A stretch of 64,000 nucleotides of DNA, taken from contig JAPPQC010000026.1 of assembly GCA_028817225.1 (NCBI GenBank), positions 8,631 to 72,630 of the forward strand. The letters run 5' to 3'. Positions 6,396 through 52,482 of this stretch are shown here, in pieces (position 1 is the stretch's first letter; the number at the start of each line of letters is the position of its first letter). Under the pieces are notes generated by a model. That model saw only the letters and a program-made list of their open reading frames with translations. It had not been told where the DNA came from and made no database searches. The stretch is from Gammaproteobacteria bacterium (GTDB taxonomy: Bacteria > Pseudomonadota > Gammaproteobacteria > Poriferisulfidales > Oxydemutatoraceae). The position numbers and the translations under genes were made by a program.

Positions 6396-7286
6396 TTATT
6401 TGCGGTCTTTCAGCACTTTGGCCATCGTCGCGCCCAGTTCCGACGGGTTCGGCGCGATGACGACGCCGGCGTTTTTCAGTATTTCGGTCTTCTCGGCGGC
6501 GCTCTCGCCCTTGCCGGAGACGATGGCGCCGGCGTGGCCCATGCGCCGCCCCTTCGGCGCCGTCAGCCCGGCCACATAGGCGACCACCGGCTTGGTCATG
6601 TAACTGCGGATGTATTCGGCGGCCTCGGCTTCCTGCGGGCCGCCGATTTCGCCGATCATCATCACCGCGCGGGTTTCAAGGTCGGTCTCGAACATCTCGA
6701 GGATGTCGCGGTGCGAACTGCCGTTGATGGGGTCGCCGCCGATGCCGACGCTGGTGGAGATGCCGATGCCAGCGGCCTGCATCTGCGACGCGGCCTCGTA
6801 GCCGAGCGTGCCGGAGCGGGCGACGACGCCGATGTTGCCGGCCTTGTAGATGTGGCCGGGCATGATGCCGAGCATCGCCTTGCCGGGGCTGATGGTGCCG
6901 GCGCAGTTGGGGCCGGTCAGCACCATTTTCTTCTCGCGGCGGTAGCGGCGCATGAAGCGCTTGACGCGCATCATGTCGAGCGCCGGGATGCCGTCGGTGA
7001 TGGCGACGCAGTAGCGAATGCCGCCGTCGGCGGCCTCCATGATGGAGTCGGCGGCGGCGGCGGCGGGCACGAACAGCACGCTGGCCTCGGCGCCGGTCTC
7101 GCGCACCGCGTCCTTGACGGTGTTGAAGACGGGCTTGCCGAGGTGGTCGGCGCCGCCCTTGCCGGGCGTCACGCCGCCGACGATGCGGGTGCCGTATTCC
7201 ATCATCTCCTTGGCGTGGAAGGTGCCGATCTTGCCGGTGAAGCCCTGCACGATGACGCGGGTTTTGTCGTCTAACAGTATGGACAT
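6396..7286 (-). CDS. mtkB: malate--CoA ligase (malate thiokinase) alpha subunit (SucD paralogue)
   Basis: CoA-binding/SucD-type alpha subunit ('VIVQGFTGKIGTFH'). Called Mtk rather than Suc because of the adjacent mcl/sga/hprA. Confidence 0.72.
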   Translation of the reverse strand: MSILLDDKTRVIVQGFTGKIGTFHAKEMMEYGTRIVGGVTPGKGGADHLGKPVFNTVKDAVRETGAEASVLFVPAAAAADSIMEAADGGIRYCVAITDGIPALDMMRVKRFMRRYRREKKMVLTGPNCAGTISPGKAMLGIMPGHIYKAGNIGVVARSGTLGYEAASQMQAAGIGISTSVGIGGDPINGSSHRDILEMFETDLETRAVMMIGEIGGPQEAEAAEYIRSYMTKPVVAYVAGLTAPKGRRMGHAGAIVSGKGESAAEKTEILKNAGVVIAPNPSELGATMAKVLKDRK

Positions 7287-7305
7287 GGTCGTTTCTCCGC
7301 GGCGC

Positions 7306-8472
7306 TCAGCGCCGGCTGGCGGCCTCGACGGCCTTGTGGGCGGCTTCGCCGAGCGTTTCCGTCGAGACCAGCGGCAGGCCGCTGTCTTTCAGCATCTTGC
7401 GCCCGACTTCTACATTGGTGCCGGACAGCCGCACGACCAGCGGCACCTTCAGGTTGATGGACTGGATGGCCTTGATCAGGCCCTCGGCGATCCAGTCGCA
7501 GCGGTTGATGCCGGCGTAGATGTTGACCAGCATCGCCTTGACGCTCTTGTCTTGCAGCACCAGTTCAAACGCCTTGGCGACGCGCTCCGGCGACGCGCCG
7601 CCGCCGATGTCGAGGAAGTTGGCGGGTTCGCCGCCGGCGTGCTTGATCATGTCCATCGTCGCCATCGCCAGGCCGGCGCCGTTGATCATGCAGCCGATGT
7701 TGCCTTCCAGGCCGACATAGCTGAGGTCGTGGTCGGAGGCGCTGGTCTCGCGCGGGTCTTCCTGCGACTTGTCGCGCATCTCGGCGATTTCCGGGTGGCG
7801 GAACAGCGCGTTGTCGTCCACGATCATCTTGGCGTCGAGCGCGATCAGTTCGCCGCCCTTGGTGATGACCAGCGGGTTGACCTCGACGAGGCTGGCGTCG
7901 GACTTGATCAGCGCGCGGTAGCAGCCGGTGATGGCGCGTATCGCGTCTTTCAGCAGGGTTTTCGGGATGTTCAGCGCGAACGCGAGTTCGGCGGCCTGAA
8001 AGCGGCGCAGGTCCACCGCCGGGTCAATCGGGATGCGGACAATCGAGTCGGGGCGCTCGGCGGCGAGTTCCTCGATGGCCATGCCGCCGCTGGCCGAGGC
8101 GACGGCGACGATGCGCTCGCTGGCGCGGTCGAGGACGAAGGCGAGGTAGAGTTCGCGGTCAATGTCGGTGCCGGCCTCGATATAGACCTTCTCGACAATC
8201 TTGCCCTGCGGCCCGGTCTGCACCGTCGCCAGCCGCGTGCCGATCATCTGGTTGGTGGCTTTCTGCACCTCTTCCTCGCTTTTGCACAACTTGACGCCGC
8301 CGGCCTTGCCGCGCGCGCCGGAATGAATCTGCGCCTTGACGACGCACGCCGGCGTGCCCAACTGGTGGTAGCAGGTGGTCGCCTGCGCCGGGCTGTACGC
8401 CAGTTTGCCGGCGGCGATGGGGACGCCGTATTGCTGCAAGATTTCCTTCGCCTGGTATTCGTGTATGTCCAC
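7306..8472 (-). CDS. mtkA: malate--CoA ligase (malate thiokinase) beta subunit (SucC paralogue)
   Basis: 'MDIHEYQAKEIL...VVKAQIHSGARGKAGGVKL' ATP-grasp beta subunit. 'AQIH.GARGKAGG' is MtkA-like rather than SucC-like. Confidence 0.72.
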   Translation of the reverse strand: MDIHEYQAKEILQQYGVPIAAGKLAYSPAQATTCYHQLGTPACVVKAQIHSGARGKAGGVKLCKSEEEVQKATNQMIGTRLATVQTGPQGKIVEKVYIEAGTDIDRELYLAFVLDRASERIVAVASASGGMAIEELAAERPDSIVRIPIDPAVDLRRFQAAELAFALNIPKTLLKDAIRAITGCYRALIKSDASLVEVNPLVITKGGELIALDAKMIVDDNALFRHPEIAEMRDKSQEDPRETSASDHDLSYVGLEGNIGCMINGAGLAMATMDMIKHAGGEPANFLDIGGGASPERVAKAFELVLQDKSVKAMLVNIYAGINRCDWIAEGLIKAIQSINLKVPLVVRLSGTNVEVGRKMLKDSGLPLVSTETLGEAAHKAVEAASRR

Positions 8473-8537: not shown

Positions 8538-9485
8538 TCAGCCTTGCCTGGCCTCGATGACCCGGGCCATCTTGACGACATTCTCGGCCATGCGCGCCGA
8601 CGCCGCGTCAATCATCTTGCCGTCGAGCGACGCCGCGCCGCGGCCTTCGGCGGCGGCTTTTTCCAGTTCCTCGAGGATGCGGCGCGCCTTGTTGACCTCG
8701 GCTTCGGGCGGCGAGAACACCTCGTTGGCGAGCGCGATTTGCGACGGGTGGATTGCCCACTTGCCTTCAATGCCGAGCGCCGCGGCGCGGCGCGCCGCCA
8801 GCGTGTAGCCTTCGGCGTCGTTGAAGTCGCCGAACGGGCCGTCTATCGGGCGCAGGCCGAAGGCGCGGCACGCCACCGTCATCCGCGTGATGGCGGCGTG
8901 CCACTGGTCGCCGGGGTAGTCGGGGTTGAGGCCGCCGATGTTGACGGTGCGCGCGCGGTTGCTGGCGGCGTAGTCGGCGACGCCGAAATGCAGCGCCTCA
9001 AGCCGCGTGCACGGCGACGCCGCGATGCGCTCGACATTGGCCATGCCGAGCGCCGTCTCAATCAGCGCCTCGAGGCCGATGCGGTGGCCGATGCCCTTGG
9101 CCTCCTCGATTTGCGACACCATCACATCCACGGTGTAGAGGTCGTCGGGCACGCCGACTTTCGGCACCAGGATGGTGTCCAGATGCTGTCCGGCCTGTTC
9201 GACGACATCCACGACATCGCGGTACATGTAATGCGTGTCAAGGCCGTTGATTCGCACCGACACGGTCTTGCCGGCGTTCTTCCAGTCAAGCGAGTTGAGC
9301 GCCTCGATGATGTTCTTGCGCGCCTGCAACTTGTCGTCGGGGGCGACGGCGTCTTCCAGGTCGAGGAACACATAGTCGGCGTCGCAGGCAAGCGCCTTTT
9401 CAATCATGCGCGGGTTGGAACCGGGCACCGCCAGTTCGCTGCGCTGCAAGCGCTCGCGCGCCGGTTCAAATCTTGTGTGGCTCAT
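8538..9485 (-). CDS. mcl: L-malyl-CoA/beta-methylmalyl-CoA lyase (HpcH/HpaI-CitE aldolase family)
   Basis: 'YVFLDLEDAVAPDDKLQARKN...' CitE-like TIM-barrel lyase in a serine-cycle context. Confidence 0.8.
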   Translation of the reverse strand: MSHTRFEPARERLQRSELAVPGSNPRMIEKALACDADYVFLDLEDAVAPDDKLQARKNIIEALNSLDWKNAGKTVSVRINGLDTHYMYRDVVDVVEQAGQHLDTILVPKVGVPDDLYTVDVMVSQIEEAKGIGHRIGLEALIETALGMANVERIAASPCTRLEALHFGVADYAASNRARTVNIGGLNPDYPGDQWHAAITRMTVACRAFGLRPIDGPFGDFNDAEGYTLAARRAAALGIEGKWAIHPSQIALANEVFSPPEAEVNKARRILEELEKAAAEGRGAASLDGKMIDAASARMAENVVKMARVIEARQG

Positions 9486-9572: not shown

Positions 9573-10835
9573 TCAGCGCCGCACGATGGCGGATTTGGAC
9601 GCCTTGCGGCGGCCTTTCTTCGGCGCCGGCGCCGCTTTCGCGCTGGACAGTTTGGCTTTCAGCGGCGGCGCCGTGCGGCGGTAGTATTCCAGCGCGGCGC
9701 CGACGCCCGCGCCCGGCTCGATGCGAAGCCCGGCGTCGCGCATCGCCATCTCGGCGGTGGCCAGCGCCGCCAGCACCGAAGTCTCGTTGTGGTCGCCCAG
9801 GTGGCCGATGCGAAACGCCTTGCCGGCCAGCACCGACAGCCCGGCGCCGAGCGACAGGTTGTAGCGGTGGTAGGCGATTTCAATGACATCGCGCGCGTCA
9901 AAGCGCGGCGGCACGCGGATGGCGGTGACGGTGTCGGAATGCCATTTCGGGGCCTTCGCCACCAGTTTCAGGCCCCAGGCGTCCACCGCGCGGCGCACGC
10001 CCTCGGCGAGGCGGTGGTGGCGCTTGAAGATGTTCTCCAGCCCTTCCTCCTCAAGCAGGATTTGCAGCGACCGTTTCAGGCCGTGCAGCAGCGGGATGGA
10101 CGGCGTGTACGGAAAGAAGCCGTCCTTGTTGGCGTTGATGTGGTCCTGGATGTCGAGAAAACACCGCGCGCATTTGGCGGTGTTTCGGGCGCGCAGCGCG
10201 CGGCGGCTGAAACAGACGATGGCCATGCCCGCCGGCAGCATGAAGCCCTTTTGCGAGCCGCTGACGGCGACATCCACTTCCCATTCGTCCATGCGGAAAT
10301 CAATGCTGGCGATGGAACTGACGCCGTCCACATAGAGCATCGCCGGGTGGCCGGCGGCGTTCATCGCGCGGCGCAGGCCGGCGATGTCGCTGGTGACGCC
10401 GGTGGCGGTCTCGTTGTGGCACACCATGACGGCCTTGATCTCGTGCTTGTGGTCGCGTTCAAGGCGGCGTTTGAAACGCTCGACCGGCACGCCTTCGCCC
10501 CACGGCACATCAATCGTCTCGACATCAAGGCCGATGCGAACCGCGAGATCCCACCACAGATGGCTGAACTGGCCGAAGCGCGATGTCAGCACCTTGTCGC
10601 CCGGCGACAGCGTGTTGCTGAGCGCGACTTCCCAGCCCGCGGTGCCGGTGGCCGGAAACAGGAAAGTGCGCCCGCTGCCGGTCTTGAAAACGCGGTTGAC
10701 ATCCTTCAGCATCGGTTTCGTCAGTTTGGCGAAATCGGGCCGGCGGTGGTCTTCCTGCGGAATGTTCATCGCGTTCTGAATCGAGACCGGAATGTTGGTC
10801 GGGCCCGGCACGAACAGGAAATTGCGTCCTGGCAT
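9573..10835 (-). CDS. sga: serine--glyoxylate aminotransferase (class V aminotransferase)
   Basis: 'MPGRNFLFVPGPTNIP', PLP-Lys region 'SGSQKGFMLPAG'. Start placed at the internal ATG at 10835, which has a GAGGA SD. Has an unusual Lys/Arg-rich C-terminal tail. Confidence 0.85.
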   Translation of the reverse strand: MPGRNFLFVPGPTNIPVSIQNAMNIPQEDHRRPDFAKLTKPMLKDVNRVFKTGSGRTFLFPATGTAGWEVALSNTLSPGDKVLTSRFGQFSHLWWDLAVRIGLDVETIDVPWGEGVPVERFKRRLERDHKHEIKAVMVCHNETATGVTSDIAGLRRAMNAAGHPAMLYVDGVSSIASIDFRMDEWEVDVAVSGSQKGFMLPAGMAIVCFSRRALRARNTAKCARCFLDIQDHINANKDGFFPYTPSIPLLHGLKRSLQILLEEEGLENIFKRHHRLAEGVRRAVDAWGLKLVAKAPKWHSDTVTAIRVPPRFDARDVIEIAYHRYNLSLGAGLSVLAGKAFRIGHLGDHNETSVLAALATAEMAMRDAGLRIEPGAGVGAALEYYRRTAPPLKAKLSSAKAAPAPKKGRRKASKSAIVRR

Positions 10836-20118: not shown

Positions 20119-20890
<772 letters not shown>

Positions 20891-20910
20891 GGGCGGGGGC
20901 GCCGCCGGCG

Positions 20911-42833: not shown

Positions 42834-42863
42834 CTTGCAACGCGCGCAGGCGCGTATTATAAT
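42834..42863 (+). promoter_or_regulatory. candidate sigma70 promoter TTGCAA-N18-TATAAT upstream of the tRNA-Ile/tRNA-Ala/23S unit
   Basis: Same -35 hexamer (TTGCAA) as the promoter in front of the 5S gene. Confidence 0.35.
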
Positions 42864-42868
42864 GCCCC

Positions 42869-42899
42869 GGTCATGCCGTTGCGGCATGGCCGTTTTTTT
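42869..42899 (+). terminator. terminator-like hairpin (10-bp stem GGTCATGCCG/CGGCATGGCC, loop TTG) followed by a U-tract
   Basis: Direct reading. Function ambiguous because it lies just downstream of the candidate promoter. Confidence 0.35.
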
Positions 42900-42965
42900 G
42901 ACGCAGTCCGTGTGGACCGGGGGCATGCAATCCGGGTGTTGACGCCCGTTGCCGTGAAGACAACC

Positions 42966-43042
42966 GGGTCTGTAGCTCAGCTGGTTAGAGCACACCCCTG
43001 ATAAGGGTGAGGTCGGTGGTTCAAGTCCACCCAGACCCACCA
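42966..43042 (+). tRNA. tRNA-Ile (anticodon GAT)
   Basis: Near-identical to E. coli tRNA-Ile(GAU). Anticodon loop CU-GAU-AA. Confidence 0.92.
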
Positions 43043-43060
43043 CGATGCACCGCGATGCGC

Positions 43061-43136
43061 GGGGCCGTAGCTCAGCCGGGAGAGCGCCTGCTTTGCAAGC
43101 AGGAGGTCAGGAGTTCGATCCTCCTCGGCTCCACCA
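43061..43136 (+). tRNA. tRNA-Ala (anticodon TGC)
   Basis: Near-identical to E. coli tRNA-Ala(UGC), 'GCCTGCTTTGCAAGCAGG'. Confidence 0.92.
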
Positions 43137-43307
43137 GCGGGGCGGCGAAACCCAATGCCGTTTTATTTGCAAGCCGCATTGGGCTTCGCTGCAAGCGAAG
43201 GGTTTTTTGACAATTAGCAAAGCCAGGATTCGCGGAAACATCCCGTTTCCGTGAATAACATTGTATCCAACACCAGTAACCTCGGCGGAGACTGCTTGAG
43301 GTTATAT

Positions 43308-46192
<2,885 letters not shown>

Positions 46193-46257
46193 TAACACTC
46201 AAGCACTTTCGTGCCTGTTGCAATGTGATTCAATGTGATTCCCGGCTTTGTTCATGT

Positions 46258-46291
46258 CAAAGGCGCCGCCCGCGCGGGCGGCGCCTTTTTT
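46258..46291 (+). terminator. rho-independent terminator directly after 23S (GGCGCCGCCCG-CGC-GGGCGGCGCC + T7)
   Basis: Perfect GC stem followed by TTTTTTT. Confidence 0.7.
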
Positions 46292-46380
46292 TGTGCGTTT
46301 TTGCGTGTTTTGCCGGCGGCGGCGCGGCGCCGGGGAAGGGCGGTTTTGCGAAAAGCGCGGCCTGTGTGTGTTCTCCGCTA

Positions 46381-46423
46381 TTGACTTTGGCATAGAGGGG
46401 GGTAGCATGGCGCATTCCACCCA
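46381..46423 (+). promoter_or_regulatory. promoter/operator motif copy 1 (TTGACT-N16-TAGCAT + GCGCATTCCAC)
   Basis: Conserved with the 48838-48881 copy. GGAGGA SD before ATG 46442. Confidence 0.4.
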
Positions 46424-46441
46424 TAACTCATCTGGAGGAGA

Positions 46442-47746
46442 ATGATGATATTAACCAAAAATTTCGCTCGTGGATTCAAACGGGCATCTTCGGGGCTTGG
46501 TTACGCAATGGTTTGTTTTTCCGCCGTCATGGCTTGTTTCTCATCCGTTGTCGCCGCTCCGAAGGTCGCTCACGAGACGGTGTTGTCCAATCTCGACAAT
46601 CCATGGGACATGGCGTTTCTGCCGGACGGAACAATGTTCTTCACCGAGAAATGTCACGGCCTTTCGGTGCGGCTGCCTTCGGGCAAAGTCAACAAATTGC
46701 TCGGCATGAAAGACAGCAAGGGTTACGCCTCGACCGCGCGTGATCTCTTCTGCGAGGGCCAGGCCGGCATGCAGGGCGTGGCCGTTGACCCCGATTTTTC
46801 CAAAAACCGGCAGATTTATGTCTATTCCACATCCGACAAGAGCGCATCCGGCAGCAACCGCCTGATGCGGATGAAGGTCAACAGCGGTTTCAGCGGCGTG
46901 TCCGGCAGGACCGACATCATTGACGATGTCCCGTACAAGCCGAAGGCGACCAATCACCCGTTCGGCGGGCCTGGCGCGCACAACGGAGGCCGTGTTCGTT
47001 TCGGGCCGGACGGGTATATCTACCTGACCACCGGCGACACGCACAACGGCAAGGTTCCGCAAAGCCCGACGCTGCTCGGCGGCAAAGTGCTGCGCGTTGA
47101 CCGCGACGGCAAGGCGGCGTCCGGCAACAAGCCGCCGAAAGGCTACGACAAGCGCATCTACACCTACGGGCACCGCAATGTGCAGGGCATCGCCTTCCGC
47201 CCGGGTGACGGCACGCCGGTGGTGGCCGAGCACGGCCCCTGGCACTCCGATGAAATCACCGTGCTGAAGAACGGCGGCAACGCCGGCTGGGATCCGCGCC
47301 CCAATGTGGCCGGTCGCGGCGACTGCCCGAACGGCTACTGCGGCTACATGCCGAACCAGATGGAAGGCGTGAATCCGATGGAACGGGCAAAATACATGCC
47401 GATGACGGATCTCAAGACCTACCCGGACGCCATGCGCCCGGCCTGGGTCAACAAAGGGCTGTCGCAGGGCACCTCCAGCGCCGCGTTTCTGACCGGCAAG
47501 CAGTGGGGCGACTGGAATGGCCGTCTCGCCGTCGGAATCCTCGGAATCGGTTTCGGCGGGACGCCGGTCGGCCACCGCATTGATGTGATTGAACTCTCCA
47601 AAGACGGCATGTCCGCGGGCGAAGTCATCCCGATGTCGCTGCCGATGGCATCGGGCCGCTTCCGGTCGGTGGTGCAGGGGCCGGACGGCAGCCTCTACGC
47701 AGCCGTGGATGAAGGCGCAATCTTCAAACTGACGCCCAGGAGTTAA
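46442..47746 (+). CDS. PQQ-dependent sugar dehydrogenase (soluble aldose/glucose-sorbosone dehydrogenase family)
   Basis: Signal peptide and six-bladed beta-propeller GSDH motifs. AT-rich 5' end. Confidence 0.8.
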   Translation: MMILTKNFARGFKRASSGLGYAMVCFSAVMACFSSVVAAPKVAHETVLSNLDNPWDMAFLPDGTMFFTEKCHGLSVRLPSGKVNKLLGMKDSKGYASTARDLFCEGQAGMQGVAVDPDFSKNRQIYVYSTSDKSASGSNRLMRMKVNSGFSGVSGRTDIIDDVPYKPKATNHPFGGPGAHNGGRVRFGPDGYIYLTTGDTHNGKVPQSPTLLGGKVLRVDRDGKAASGNKPPKGYDKRIYTYGHRNVQGIAFRPGDGTPVVAEHGPWHSDEITVLKNGGNAGWDPRPNVAGRGDCPNGYCGYMPNQMEGVNPMERAKYMPMTDLKTYPDAMRPAWVNKGLSQGTSSAAFLTGKQWGDWNGRLAVGILGIGFGGTPVGHRIDVIELSKDGMSAGEVIPMSLPMASGRFRSVVQGPDGSLYAAVDEGAIFKLTPRS

Positions 47747-47775
47747 TCAACCCGGCTCTGCCGCGCCGCCCGGCG

Positions 47776-48132
47776 GTGCGGCAGGGTCTTGCGCCTGTTC
47801 AATCATCAATGAAAGCGTTGGCATTTTCCGCCGCCGTTCTTGTGCTGATGCCCGTTGCGGCGTCAGCGCAGGAGACGGGCGCCGACACCGTGGCGAAGGT
47901 TTATGCGGAGGTGTGCTCCAAGTGTCACGGCCCGACCGCGCGGGGAATGGCGAGTTTCCCGCGGCTTTCGGACAAGGAGAAGGCGTATCTCGCCGACCGG
48001 CTCAGGCGATACCGCGCCGGAGAAATGGTCGGCCCCAATACCCCCCTGATGATGCCGCACGCGGTCAACCTGACCGACGCCGAGATTGACGAACTGGCGG
48101 CCTATATTTCCACGGCTTTTGCAGGGAACTGA
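47776..48132 (+). CDS. class I c-type cytochrome
   Basis: Signal peptide and a single 'CSKCHG' CXXCH haem motif. Start ambiguous (47776 or 47809). Confidence 0.7.
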   Translation: MRQGLAPVQSSMKALAFSAAVLVLMPVAASAQETGADTVAKVYAEVCSKCHGPTARGMASFPRLSDKEKAYLADRLRRYRAGEMVGPNTPLMMPHAVNLTDAEIDELAAYISTAFAGN

Positions 48133-48235
48133 AGAACCGCCCTGGCTGGCCGGGGAGCGGCGATTCGTTGTGATTCAGCGCGCCGCCTGACACCGGCGCC
48201 GCACCCCGGCAATGCCTGCCGGTTTTGTACATGTC

Positions 48236-48270
48236 AAAGGCGCCGCCCCGCACGGGCGGCGCCTTTTTTT
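48236..48270 (+). terminator. rho-independent terminator between the convergent cytochrome c and SRPBCC genes (near-copy of the 23S terminator)
   Basis: GGCGCCGCCCCG-CAC-GGGCGGCGCC + T7. The about 55 bp around it repeat the element at 46247-46295. Confidence 0.6.
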
Positions 48271-48292
48271 GTCGCCGGCGCCGGCGCCCCGC

Positions 48293-48823
48293 TCAGTTGA
48301 AGTGGCGCGCGAGGCTGCCGAGGCCCGCCTCATAGACGCCGGCCATCGTCTCGACGGCTTTTTCGTCCGGCGCGTCCTTGGCGTCGAAAGTGCCCGACCA
48401 GGTCACCGTGGCCTTGCCGCCCGGCGCGCCTTTGACGGCAACGACCGACTCGTAGTTTTTCACCGGCAGCGGCCCGCCGGTAATCCGGTAGGTGTAACTC
48501 TTGTCGTAGTCGCTGTGTTTGACCAGCACCTCAGTCACTTCGGCGCCGTCGGCCAGCGTCAGCACGCGCACCGCGCCTTCCTTGTTGTGTTGCCCCTTCT
48601 TGAGGGTGCTCATGACGACGACGGGGTGCCAGACATCAAGATGGTTGAAGTGGCCGATCATCTTCCAGGCCGTTTCCGGCGATGCATTGACCGTCGTCTG
48701 TTTCTCGACGCTGAGTTTTCCGCCGGCCTGCGCGGACGGCGCCGCAAGGCACAAGGCCGCGGCCAGTGCGATGCCGGTTGCGATTCCGGAAAAGGGCGAT
48801 TTTGTGCAAAGTGTGTTTTTCAT
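48293..48823 (-). CDS. SRPBCC (Bet v1-like/polyketide cyclase) family secreted protein
   Basis: Signal peptide then the SRPBCC fold. Start at internal ATG 48823 with a GGGAGAA SD. Confidence 0.6.
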   Translation of the reverse strand: MKNTLCTKSPFSGIATGIALAAALCLAAPSAQAGGKLSVEKQTTVNASPETAWKMIGHFNHLDVWHPVVVMSTLKKGQHNKEGAVRVLTLADGAEVTEVLVKHSDYDKSYTYRITGGPLPVKNYESVVAVKGAPGGKATVTWSGTFDAKDAPDEKAVETMAGVYEAGLGSLARHFN

Positions 48824-48960: not shown

Positions 48961-51357
48961 ATGCAAGCATTGCACCACGGCGGGCACGGTTGCAAAACCG
49001 CCGCCGCCGCTGCCGCGCTTCTCTGCGTTCTGACAGGCGTTCCCGCGCCGGTGCAGGGCGCGGAGGCCGAGAAAATCATCGTCATCGGCACCACGCCGGT
49101 GCGCCAGGACGACCTCGACGCGGGCGACTTTCCGGGGCGCATCCAGAGCGCCGGCAGCAAGGAACTCGGCGCCAGCGTCAGCGCCGACATTTCCGGCTAC
49201 CTGAACCGCTATTTCGGCGGCGTGCACATCAACTCGGCGCAGGGCAATCCGCTGCAGGTGGATTTGTACTACCGCGGCTTCGCCGCATCGCCGCTGCTCG
49301 GCCTGCCGATGGGCATGGCGGTGTACCAGAACGGCGTGCGCCTGAACGAACCGCTCGGCGACACCGTGAACTGGGATCTGGTGCCGATGAACGCCGTCGC
49401 CGGCCTCAGCCTGCTGAGCGGCTCCAACCCGCTTTACGGCCTCAACACACTGGGCGGCGCAATCGTGATTGAGATGAAGAACGGCTTTACCCATCCGGGG
49501 CACGCGGTCGAGGCCGAGGGCGGCTCGTATGAGCGCTTCATCGGCAACTTCGAGAGCGGCGGCAACAACGGCGAGTTCGCCTGGTATGTCAACGCGCAGC
49601 GCTTCTACGAGGGCGGCTGGCGCGACTTGTCGAAGTCGTGGGCCGAGAACCTCTACGCGAGTTTCGACTGGCGCGGCGACGGAGCGACGCTCGGGCTGAA
49701 CTACCACCGCGGACGCTCCGACCTGAAGGGCAACGGCCTGCTGCCGGCGGGCCTGCTCGACGGCGAGCGCGATGCGATTTTCACGGCGCCCGACATCACC
49801 GAGAACGATATGTACCTGTGGGCGCTCCGGGGCGACTATCAAATCGGCGACGATGTGCGCCTGTCGGGCAACCTCTATTACCGCGACAACGCCACCGACT
49901 CGTTCAACGGCGACGGCGCCGAAGAGGAACTGATTGATCCCGCCGACCCGATGGACCGGGTGCAGGCGTGCGAGGACATCTCATGCGACGCGGTCAACAA
50001 CATCAGCGAACGCAGCCAGCGCGCGCACGGCGGCGTGCTGGAACTGGACTTCCCGCTCGACTGGTTCGGCCTTCAGCACGACCTCAACGCCGGCATGGGC
50101 TATTACGAGGGCCGCAGCACCTTCGACTCGCGCGTGCAATACGCCACACTCGACCCGAACACGCGCTCAACGCGCGGGCCGCGATCCGTCGCCGGCGCCT
50201 TCAGCGACGACGACGATGACATCACCGATGTCAAGACGCGCGTCAAGCGCACCTATCTGTATCTCGGCGACAGCATCTCCGTCGGTGACGCCTGGACGGT
50301 CAACCTGGCCGGCTTCTACCACGACAGCGAAATCCGGCTGACCGACCGCACCGGCGACCAGCCCGAACTGAACGGCAGCCACGACTACGACAACTTCAAC
50401 TGGAGCACCGGCGCCGTCTGGCACTGGCGTTCCGACACCGACTTCTACGGCAGTTACAGCGAATCAAGCCGCCTGCCGACGCCGATAGAACTCGCGTGCA
50501 GCGAGGAGATTCTGGCCGCACGGGCCGCTTCCGGCGGCGGCGACGAAGTGGAGTGCCGCCTGCCCAATGCGTTCCTCGCCGACCCGCCGCTTGACGAGGT
50601 CATCTCGGAGACCTTCGAGTTCGGCGTGCGCGGCGCCGCCGCCAACGGCTGGCTGTGGTCGCTGGGCGCGTTCCACACCGAGAACAACGACGACATCATC
50701 TGGCAGACAACGGGCCGCGCCCACGGCGCATTCCGCAATGTGGACAAGACCCGGCGGGTCGGCCTTGAGGCGTCGCTTGCGGGCGACTACGGGCGGCTCG
50801 ATTGGAGACTGAACTACACCTGGCTTGAGGCGACATTCGAGGACGACTTCGAGGCGCTGGTCAGCGAGGACTACGCGGCCCTCGGCGCCACGGTGCGCGA
50901 GGTGTGCCCGAACCGCGGCACCGGATGCGCCGCCGCCGACATGGTGGAGGTCGCCAGTGTCGGCAAGGGCGACGACATTCCCGGCATTCCGCAGCATCTG
51001 TTCAAGGCCGCCGCGGATTACGCGTTCACCGACCGGTTTTCGATGGGAGTGGACATGATCGCGGTTTCCGACAGCCATCTGCGCGGCGACGAGTCCAACC
51101 AGTTGGACGAGGTCAGCGGCTACGCCGTGTTCAACGCGCGCGCCAACTACCGCGCCGGCGGTTTCGAGGCGTTTGTGCTGGTTGAGAACCTGTTCGACCG
51201 CGACTACGAGAACTTCGGCCTGATCGGCGAGGAGCCGGAACTCGGCAGGGAAGTGGGCGGCGACCCGTCGGTGCTGGAACTCGACGACGAAAGAGCGCTC
51301 TACTACGCCCCCGGCGCCCCGTTGTCGGTGTGGGGCGGCGTGCGCTGGCGCTTCTGA
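48961..51357 (+). CDS. TonB-dependent outer-membrane receptor
   Basis: Signal peptide, plug and beta-barrel. Terminal 'RWRF' aromatic residue. AAGGAG SD. Confidence 0.88.
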   Translation: MQALHHGGHGCKTAAAAAALLCVLTGVPAPVQGAEAEKIIVIGTTPVRQDDLDAGDFPGRIQSAGSKELGASVSADISGYLNRYFGGVHINSAQGNPLQVDLYYRGFAASPLLGLPMGMAVYQNGVRLNEPLGDTVNWDLVPMNAVAGLSLLSGSNPLYGLNTLGGAIVIEMKNGFTHPGHAVEAEGGSYERFIGNFESGGNNGEFAWYVNAQRFYEGGWRDLSKSWAENLYASFDWRGDGATLGLNYHRGRSDLKGNGLLPAGLLDGERDAIFTAPDITENDMYLWALRGDYQIGDDVRLSGNLYYRDNATDSFNGDGAEEELIDPADPMDRVQACEDISCDAVNNISERSQRAHGGVLELDFPLDWFGLQHDLNAGMGYYEGRSTFDSRVQYATLDPNTRSTRGPRSVAGAFSDDDDDITDVKTRVKRTYLYLGDSISVGDAWTVNLAGFYHDSEIRLTDRTGDQPELNGSHDYDNFNWSTGAVWHWRSDTDFYGSYSESSRLPTPIELACSEEILAARAASGGGDEVECRLPNAFLADPPLDEVISETFEFGVRGAAANGWLWSLGAFHTENNDDIIWQTTGRAHGAFRNVDKTRRVGLEASLAGDYGRLDWRLNYTWLEATFEDDFEALVSEDYAALGATVREVCPNRGTGCAAADMVEVASVGKGDDIPGIPQHLFKAAADYAFTDRFSMGVDMIAVSDSHLRGDESNQLDEVSGYAVFNARANYRAGGFEAFVLVENLFDRDYENFGLIGEEPELGREVGGDPSVLELDDERALYYAPGAPLSVWGGVRWRF

Positions 51358-51380: not shown

Positions 51381-51409
51381 TTGCAATCCACCCCGGCGCC
51401 CGTTATAAT
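51381..51409 (+). promoter_or_regulatory. near-consensus sigma70 promoter TTGCAA-N17-TATAAT in front of the 5S rRNA
   Basis: Direct reading. Only 1 mismatch to TTGACA, with a perfect TATAAT. Confidence 0.55.
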
Positions 51410-51447
51410 CGCCGTTTCCGACAAACCAGACTGTGAGATTTGCAGCC

Positions 51448-51540
51448 ATGATGAAAGTACCGCTGGAAAACATGATCTCGCCGATCATCTTTTTCGCCAT
51501 ATTGGGTTTTCTGGATTACCTGATTGCCACCGCGCGCTGA
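51448..51540 (+). CDS. possible 30-aa hydrophobic leader peptide (MMKVPLENMISPIIFFAILGFLDYLIATAR)
   Basis: ATG-initiated ORF between the promoter and the 5S. No clear SD. Possibly spurious. Confidence 0.15.
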   Translation: MMKVPLENMISPIIFFAILGFLDYLIATAR

Positions 51541-51558
51541 GCTGCGCGACAACCGGTT

Positions 51559-51678
51559 TGCCTGGCGGCCATAGAGTGCTGGTACCACCCGATCCCATTC
51601 CGAACTCGGAAGTGAAACGGCGCATCGCCGATGGTAGTACGGGGCCTCCCCGTGTGAGAGTAGGACACCGCCAGGCAT
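51559..51678 (+). rRNA. rrf: 5S ribosomal RNA
   Basis: 'TGCCTGGCGGCCATAG...GAAGTGAAAC...GATGGTAGT...GAGAGTAGGACACCGCCAGGCAT' aligns with E. coli 5S along its whole length. Confidence 0.9.
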
Positions 51679-51696
51679 TGTTTTTGCGCGCGCGCG

Positions 51697-52482
51697 ATGG
51701 ATTTTGACCTTGAATTTTTTCTGGTGCTCGGGACGCTGGTCACCGGGCTGGTCGCGCTCGCCGCGCGCCTGTCCGCCAGGCGCACGCAGGACGAAGACAA
51801 GGCGGCGGAAAAGCCGGCCCGCTTCGGCTGGGCCGTGGACGGCGCGCGGTCTTTCTTTCCGATTCTGCTGATTGTCCTTCTGCTGCGAAGTTTCGTCGTC
51901 GAGCCGTTCCGGATTCCGTCCGGCTCGATGCTGCCGACGCTGGAAATCGGCGACTTCATACTCGTCAACAAATACACCTACGGCCTGAAACTGCCGGTTT
52001 TGCACGACACCATCGTTCCCGTCGGCGCGCCGCGCACCGGTGATGTCGCCGTGTTCCGCTACCCGCGCGACGCCAGCCAGGACTACATCAAGCGCATCGT
52101 CGGCGTGCCCGGCGACCACATCATCTACCGCGACAAGCAACTCCAGATTAACGGCGAGGTCATCGGGCAGGCCGAACGGGAGGACCTCGGCGTGTTTTCG
52201 GAGATGCTGCCGATTGAGATGCAGCGCAGGAGCGAATCGCTGCCGGGCGCCGGCCACGACATTCTGCTGGCGCCGTCGGTCAGCCAGCCGATGGGGCAGT
52301 GGCGCGTGCCGCCCGGCCACTATTTCGTCATGGGCGACAACCGCGACAACAGCAACGACAGCCGCGCCTGGGGATTTGTTCCGGAGGCCAACCTCGTCGG
52401 CAGGGCGTTCCTGATCTGGATGCACTGGGACTACGGCGCGGGCCGTTTTGATCTCTCGCGCATCGGCACGGTCATCCGCTAA
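51697..52482 (+). CDS. lepB: signal peptidase I
   Basis: 'IPSGSMLPTL' Ser box, 'KRIVGVPGD' Lys box, 'GDNRDNSNDSR'. Confidence 0.88.
   Translation: MDFDLEFFLVLGTLVTGLVALAARLSARRTQDEDKAAEKPARFGWAVDGARSFFPILLIVLLLRSFVVEPFRIPSGSMLPTLEIGDFILVNKYTYGLKLPVLHDTIVPVGAPRTGDVAVFRYPRDASQDYIKRIVGVPGDHIIYRDKQLQINGEVIGQAEREDLGVFSEMLPIEMQRRSESLPGAGHDILLAPSVSQPMGQWRVPPGHYFVMGDNRDNSNDSRAWGFVPEANLVGRAFLIWMHWDYGAGRFDLSRIGTVIR

Follow-up and report, generated by a model that had tools for sequence, protein, structure and literature searches.

Direct copies of a 23S rRNA trailer and terminator around a PQQ-dehydrogenase/cytochrome c cassette in a gammaproteobacterium

The repeats and the cassette between them

We analyse here a 64-kb stretch of DNA (the window below, positions 8,631 to 72,630 of contig JAPPQC010000026.1) from a gammaproteobacterium of the Oxydemutatoraceae, in which two near-identical terminator-like elements, copy A and copy B, flank a pyrroloquinoline quinone (PQQ)-dependent dehydrogenase gene and a cytochrome c gene behind a 23S rRNA gene. 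RNA genes were called with Rfam and ARAGORN, and protein domains with Pfam. The 23S gene is full length (43308..46191, + strand; Rfam RF02541, 2854.6 bits), and is preceded on the same strand by tRNA-Ile(GAT) and tRNA-Ala(TGC) (42966..43136, with starts at 42966 and 43061 by ARAGORN), which are the usual tRNAs of a 16S-23S spacer, here with no 16S upstream. The interval from the 23S to the 5S gene (51561..51676, + strand; Rfam RF00001) holds four genes by Pfam, namely the PQQ dehydrogenase, the cytochrome c, an SRPBCC/polyketide-cyclase-like gene (48293..48823, - strand; PF10604) and a TonB-dependent receptor (48961..51357, + strand). Copy A (46227..46294, + strand; local alignment and BLAST) comprises the end of the native 23S trailer and the rrl terminator, and copy B (48162..48272, + strand; alignment) lies behind the cytochrome gene, so that the two bracket the dehydrogenase and cytochrome genes as direct repeats, as the preliminary description of this DNA had proposed.

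The likeness of the two elements noticed in that description holds on alignment. Both strings quoted there are present, with coordinates off by a few bases: the one beginning with ttgttcatgtc starts at 46248 (46247 had been given), and the one beginning with ttgtacatgtc extends from 48225 to 48274 (48218-48277 had been given). On the whole, the common core is 54 nt with 92.6% identity (46242-46294 versus 48219-48272 by local alignment; E of ~7e-14 by blastn-short against 212 kb). The common 23-nt 5' part matches exactly twice in the 64 kb, with 0 expected from 100 shuffles, and the hairpin pattern likewise has just two matches in the window, where chance would give none; a third copy is found neither in the window nor in the 212 kb of clade loci by pattern search and blastn-short. 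The gtgattca motif reported ahead of both elements is likewise present, at 46225-46232 and 48170-48177. The upstream motif common to A and B reads GATTC..TGTGATTC, and the wider motif, GATTCAATGTGATTC in A and GATTCGTTGTGATTC in B, matches at 13 of 15 positions, a score reached by none of 500 shuffles. Copy B is built of the trailer relic GATTCGTTGTGATTC, about 42 additional nt with a small hairpin (48206-48222), and then the 54-nt core, and it is without the 17-nt T-rich stretch that follows the T-run of A. Two further matches were set aside. A downstream extension of the repeat through GCCGGCGGCGGCGC scored well against shuffles but is not taken as evidence, because 12-15-mers of this G+C-rich stretch recur throughout the window, and an 8-nt match GCCGGGGA at both cargo ends has a chance probability of ~0.1 by rough estimate.

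Each copy contains a hairpin with the anatomy of a Rho-independent terminator, that is, a G+C-rich stem-loop with a T run directly 3'. Terminator A (46259..46292, + strand; -29.9 kcal/mol, z = -3.0) and terminator B (48236..48270, + strand; -29.3 kcal/mol) have the same 13-bp stem with 10 G-C pairs and a T7 run, and the loop is GCGC (4 nt) in A and CGCAC (5 nt) in B. Both stand on the coding strand at the 3' end of a transcription unit, A 67 nt past the 23S end and B 103 nt past the cytochrome c stop codon, the latter between the convergent cytochrome c and SRPBCC genes, and from the predicted folds we infer that transcription would stop at both. The stem was also searched in a scan of 185,579 species with one genome per species, in which the source species is not included, and it occurs once each in 54 unrelated species of many phyla. 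Around these 54 stems, at most 10 of 20 flank positions agree with A or B, versus 16 of 20 between A and B. The stem is thus a generic terminator sequence arising repeatedly, so that the evidence for the homology of A and B comes from flanks, loop region and tail. A flank plus half-stem gave no match in a metagenome scan, whose collection is again without the source species (the best dehydrogenase match there is 82%). Members of the same 90% cluster exist at the Joint Genome Institute (JGI), but since the source species is missing from the collections scanned, both scans are without power for its own genome.

Copy A appears as the native end of the 23S unit. The 3' trailer of the 23S (46192..46250, + strand), which holds the first gtgattca and GGCTTTG, is predicted by co-folding to form the 3' strand of a leader/trailer processing stem: its TGTGAT, CAATGT and GGCTTTG pair with the leader (43216-43322) and lengthen the helix of the 23S ends. 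For the relative L065 the prediction gives this stem too, and the position that follows CAATG has a compensating change there. A predicted rRNA processing stem would therefore include the gtgattca motif and the bases directly 5' of hairpin A, and copy A is the native 3' trailer and predicted terminator of an orphan tRNA-Ile/tRNA-Ala/23S unit. Copy B has the same motifs with no leader partner for pairing, which argues that it is a copy of the 23S trailer and not an independent module; on its sequence, B is best described as a duplicate of the 23S trailer and terminator. Behind A there remains a piece of the native 23S-SRPBCC spacer (46295..46330, + strand), the T-rich GCGTTTTTGCGTGTTTT and the following bases, which aligns as the orthologue of the spacer in the relatives L068 and L073. 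The left cargo junction falls at ~46313-46335, its exact point blurred by G+C-rich low-complexity sequence, and a BLAST alignment of A with L068 reaches 46313.

The cargo itself covers about 1.83 kb (46331..48161, + strand, by alignment with the relatives that are without it). It starts with a promoter-like site predicted by consensus scan, TTGACT-16-TAGCAT (46381..46408, + strand), followed by a PQQ-dependent soluble glucose/sorbosone (aldose sugar) dehydrogenase with a signal peptide (46445..47746, + strand; PF07995, E = 5e-57), the exact 433-aa product of which is on record (P0001), and by a small c-type cytochrome (47809..48132, + strand; PF00034, PF13442). The cytochrome is a conserved companion of the enzyme: a homologue adjoins the dehydrogenase gene in L009, L010 and L154 and in 49 of 80 metagenome loci. 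Proteins of very different phyla share 70-86% identity with the dehydrogenase, which indicates frequent transfer of this family. The G+C content at third codon positions (GC3) is low in both: the dehydrogenase has 0.78 and the cytochrome 0.76, where 50 genes of the window average 0.858 (sd 0.038). No protein other than this GSDH-family enzyme and the cytochrome is encoded in the cargo. Recombinase, integrase or transposase domains are found by Pfam neither in the cargo nor in its immediate neighbours, and the cargo has no terminal repeats. The borders of the cargo could not be placed by homology with L154, L009 and L010, in which only the ribosome-binding site and the coding regions align. As for the dehydrogenase in sponge symbionts, we found nothing directly applicable in the literature.

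Filled and empty sites among relatives

The relatives were found by a LepB search, after which the contigs encoding the matches were fetched, and nucleotide identity to the window was taken over the shared 4.9 kb. All contigs at least 98.8% identical to the window carry the cassette and both copies. The arrangement A-cassette-B is present in eight independent contigs (L001, L002, L003, L005, L069, L070, L071 and the window; 98.8-100% identity), and it is therefore no assembly artefact. Three relatives have empty sites, namely L068 (91.1% identity), L073 (90.4%) and L065 (77.6%). In each of them a single spacer of 131-152 nt, with a single terminator, lies between the 23S and the SRPBCC stop codon. 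The comparison with relatives lacking the insert, proposed in the preliminary description, thus yields one terminator copy and no cassette in all three, and its suggestion of a target duplication stands: the repeats duplicate the local 23S trailer and terminator, and bracket a segment absent at exactly this place in L068, L073 and L065. This is the pattern of attachment (att)-type sites, where target repeats flank the element and a single copy is present in the empty site. On the 1.48-Mb contig of L065, no close homologue of the dehydrogenase is found among the best 120 matches.

The single copies help to order the changes. BLAST gives 98% identity between copy A and the single copy of L073, and 92% for that of L068, and both single copies resemble A along their whole length, with the GCGC loop and the T-rich stretch present. 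A tandem CAATGTGATT unit is common to A and B and absent in L068 and L073, and the pair at the base of the stem is A-T in A and B, G-C in L068 and an A.C mismatch in L073. Since A and B share states without counterpart in L068 and L073, B is taken to derive from this lineage's own A; and since A agrees with L068 and L073 at the sites where A and B differ, B would carry the derived changes. The orthologous terminator of L065 has diverged beyond recognition, and L065 is also without the T-rich segment after the T-run, like B. In strain L069 (~99% identity; 2361-2392), a B-type loop (CCCCGCACGGG) stands at the position of A together with a third flank variant, GTCCATG, which suggests short-tract gene conversion between the copies or, alternatively, an assembly error.

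A second insertion is seen in L009, a distant relative whose LepB is 59% identical to that of the window. L009 and another distant relative, L154, come from genomes of ~50% G+C, and their orphan 23S genes have no tRNAs and no 5S; in neither is there a repeat of their own 23S terminator after the cytochrome c gene. Compared with L154, L009 has a 2.1-kb insert (region L009 7247-10107) with a 538-aa trypsin-like protein and a 56-aa open reading frame (ORF). On either side of the insert stands a direct copy, ~320 bp long, of the stretch with the promoter and the signal-peptide codons of the dehydrogenase, the two being ~82% identical. The first of them persists as a 49-codon stub, and L154 (455-815) has an uninterrupted single copy. 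Judged from these copies, the insert of L009 is an independent event with the same signature as the window cassette. The 23S trailer region of L009 also contains 18-nt tandem repeat arrays (about TTGTTTGCGGACTGTTAA; 7029-7406).

Probable origin by insertion

Low cargo GC3 together with a widely transferred family favours insertion, and with a probability of roughly 0.65 we read the locus as an acquired cassette that was inserted with a long target duplication in an ancestor of the window species. A horizontally acquired cassette of ~1.8 kb, made of the dehydrogenase, the cytochrome c and probably their own promoter, would have entered the far end of the 23S-SRPBCC spacer in a single gain on the branch of the window species, after its split from L068 and L073. 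The insertion would have re-copied most of the spacer, from within the processing-stem strand through the hairpin and T-run, giving copy B. Transcription of the 23S would still end at A, so that the cassette is shielded from the strong rRNA promoter, while the cassette would end at B, which may also insulate it from the convergent SRPBCC gene. Both the polarity as a gain and the mechanism are inferred. For the latter we favour a recombinase-independent duplicative insertion, which might have gone by either of two routes: a replication template switch out to incoming DNA at the spacer end with a return upstream, or integration of a spacer-bearing circle by a single crossover. The duplicated stretch measures at least 54-68 nt, possibly nearly the whole spacer, and without a recombinase this does not agree with transposition and agrees poorly with the action of an integrase. 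Target-site duplications of transposons and insertion sequences (IS) also flank their insert as direct target repeats; however, their length is 2-14 bp, and the element between them has terminal inverted repeats and a transposase, neither of which is seen here. Template switching and Campbell-type single crossover are known to give a spacer-cargo-spacer order and long duplications of variable length with no dedicated recombinase. The window resembles them in its spacer-cargo-spacer order with a long duplication, for which no recombinase is needed, although neither junction microhomology nor a circular form is seen. On long duplications in illegitimate recombination, nothing directly applicable was found in the literature.

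Several observations weigh against a gain, and most of them serve the alternative that the repeat-flanked cassette beside the 23S is ancestral and was lost in L065 and in the lineage of L068 and L073 by homologous recombination of A with B, after which a single hybrid spacer remained. The same cassette starts ~440 nt after the orphan 23S in L154 (L154 1-643) and lies 3 kb after the orphan 23S in L009 (L009 3850-10001), and the window dehydrogenase clusters with those of L154 and L009 in a neighbour-joining tree, while a 23S or 5S gene is nearby in 0 of 80 other dehydrogenase loci, all from metagenomes. Shared ancestry could therefore account for this adjacency, as might a site preference or coincidence, and under shared ancestry the empty sites would be deletions. 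Deletion between direct repeats gives exactly the structure of the empty sites. A and B differ by ~7% and two indels, about the same as the species differs from L068 and L073; the B-type loop at the position of A in L069 means that gene conversion could create the seemingly shared derived states; and the missing T-rich segment of L065 also agrees with B. In addition, the GC3 of the cargo deviates by only ~2 sd, the junctions gave neither microhomology nor any other trace of a mechanism, and termination and promoter activity are predictions only. We nevertheless hold this ancestral origin to be rather unlikely. At least two independent losses would be needed, versus one gain. A and B keep species-specific features and 92.6% identity although the terminator of L065 has diverged beyond recognition, the single copies of L068 and L073 are A-like throughout, the GC3 of the cargo is below that of the host, and no such repeats surround the cassette in L154 and L009. 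A general association, with the cassette travelling together with the 23S and integrating by rRNA homology, was also considered and rejected, given the 0 of 80 loci with 23S or 5S and the trailer of A, which is native and not donor-like.

Quite improbable, in our view, is the explanation that the repeats are attL/attR-like sites of a small element that has no integrase of its own and is moved in trans by a site-specific recombinase targeting the 23S terminator region. Direct repeats of tens of bases around an islet by a stable-RNA gene are the classic footprint of an integrase island, and the cassette stands next to the 23S in three lineages; as in the islets and islands at tRNA and tmRNA genes, foreign genes lie by a stable-RNA gene, a duplicated 3' region flanks them, and the relatives have empty sites. 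However, integrase and transposase domains are missing from both the cargo and its immediate neighbours, the repeat starts inside the trailer and is imperfect, with indels and no sharp identical core, and the target is the terminator and trailer and not the RNA gene itself. Neither L154 nor L009 has a repeat of its 23S terminator after the cytochrome c, and the duplication-flanked insert of L009 uses a quite different target, promoter and signal-peptide coding sequence, which argues against site specificity. Least credible of all is that the element belongs to a dispersed family of terminators or of repetitive extragenic palindrome (REP)-like sequences, or is a mobile terminator module, its two copies having nothing to do with an insertion. 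It is true that the stem recurs in many bacteria, but the other 54 stems are single, in unrelated phyla and poor in flank matches, a third copy is missing from the window and the clade loci, and an orthologous single copy lies at the same place in L068 and L073. The mobile module in particular, put forward in the preliminary description, is not supported, given a processing-stem relic in B, a cargo with neither recombinase nor terminal repeats, and the lack of any further copy in 212 kb of clade DNA. Taken together, duplicative insertion of an acquired cassette remains our preferred account.

Dispersed rRNA genes and the meaning of the locus

The same description had also explained the separation of the 23S and 5S genes by the cassette. 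This fails, since in the empty-site relatives L065, L068 and L073 the two rRNA genes are likewise kept apart by the SRPBCC and TonB-receptor genes. The 5S is directly upstream of lepB in every relative examined (L065-L068, L073 and L155), and in L066 and L067 the 5S-lepB pair is kept with no 23S nearby. With these genes present in the empty-site relatives and the 5S tied to lepB-rnc-era across the clade, the separation is older than the cassette event and independent of it. In the window, the order 3' of the 5S is lepB, rnc, era, recO, pdxJ and acpS, and lepB starts 20 nt past the 5S with no terminator between. Upstream of the 5S there is a conserved 30-codon ORF, MMKVPLENMISPIIFFAILGFLDYLIATAR (51449-51541), with its own promoter-like site TTGCAA-17-TATAAT (region 51381-51697). 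Owing to the missing terminator and to the promoter and ORF upstream, the 5S seems to belong to the leader of the operon of lepB, rnc (the gene of RNase III) and era. The order promoter-ORF-5S-lepB is aligned in L065, L066 and L067, and a 30-codon ORF is called just upstream of the 5S in L068 and L073. L066 and L067 (~9580-9800) have an identical LepB and the same promoter-ORF-5S region and are wholly different upstream, with the breakpoint at the -35 edge of the 5S promoter. Beyond it lies a NIF3 gene in L066 and, in L067, the Na/Ca exchanger block that is also found beside the 23S unit of the window.

As to the 23S unit, a promoter-like site TTGCAA-17-TATAAT is predicted ahead of its tRNA genes by consensus scan (42835..42863, + strand) and is kept in L065, and a hairpin with a T7 run lies directly 3' of it (42868-42892). 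The 9-mer GACAACCGG stands immediately 5' of both tRNA-Ile (~42955-42963) and the 5S (~51552-51560), in the window as well as in L065. With similar TTGCAA-17-TATAAT sites ahead of both copies, it may represent a processing signal common to both, or else date from an old duplication of a promoter and leader. Elsewhere in the window, at 20840-20902, there is a tandem 9-nt repeat CGGCAAGGG of ~7 units.

Small-subunit (16S) rRNA is not found by Rfam in the 64-kb window, nor in L001 or L065. Unlinked 16S and 23S genes have been defined as lying more than 1500 bp apart (PMC7761764), and with 43 kb free of any 16S upstream of the 23S, the 23S gene of the window is unlinked in this sense. Such genes are already known: the 16S is apart from 23S-5S in many symbionts and slow growers, and all three are apart in Thermoplasma (PMC7761764). 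The window is alike in having no 16S within 43 kb upstream of its 23S, and the genomes of the distant clade relatives L009 and L010 stand on contigs of ~2 Mb. It differs in that the 5S is detached from the 23S too, and stands upstream of lepB-rnc-era behind the conserved 30-codon ORF, a placement not described in the surveys of unlinked rRNA genes consulted.

The local duplication of the terminator of an rRNA unit around an acquired cassette is a fairly ordinary type of event, if a well documented one, and it is the genomic setting that is unusual. In E. coli, rrnB T1 and T2 are intrinsic (Rho-independent) terminators at the end of an rRNA operon. The window resembles this in a strong G+C hairpin and U-run right after the last rRNA gene, beyond the leader/trailer stem, but here the unit stops at the 23S with no 5S, and the terminator is duplicated for a foreign protein-coding cassette. 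The promoter of the 23S unit is probably among the strongest in the cell, and because the terminator is duplicated, both units would keep a stop signal. It is tempting, although doubtful at present, to see the 3' flank of the orphan 23S, in this uncultured gammaproteobacterial clade with fully dispersed rRNA genes, as a recurrent landing site, where genes may be added by recombinase-free duplicative insertion re-copying tens to hundreds of target bases (~68-110 nt here and ~320 nt in L009). The candidate events are four, namely the SRPBCC and TonB genes between 23S and 5S, the window cassette, the cassette of L154 and L009, and the protease gene of L009, and a flanking duplication is shown by only two of them, the window cassette and the protease gene. 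Both of these duplicative inserts leave resident and incoming genes each with a regulatory signal, either a terminator or a promoter. As sister species show the empty site, the locus illustrates cleanly how in nature a foreign operon may be placed directly behind a gene with a strong promoter without disturbing that gene. Its wider context, with three dispersed rRNA genes, a 5S ahead of the RNase III gene and a second long-duplication insert in a relative, is maybe of more interest than the repeat itself.

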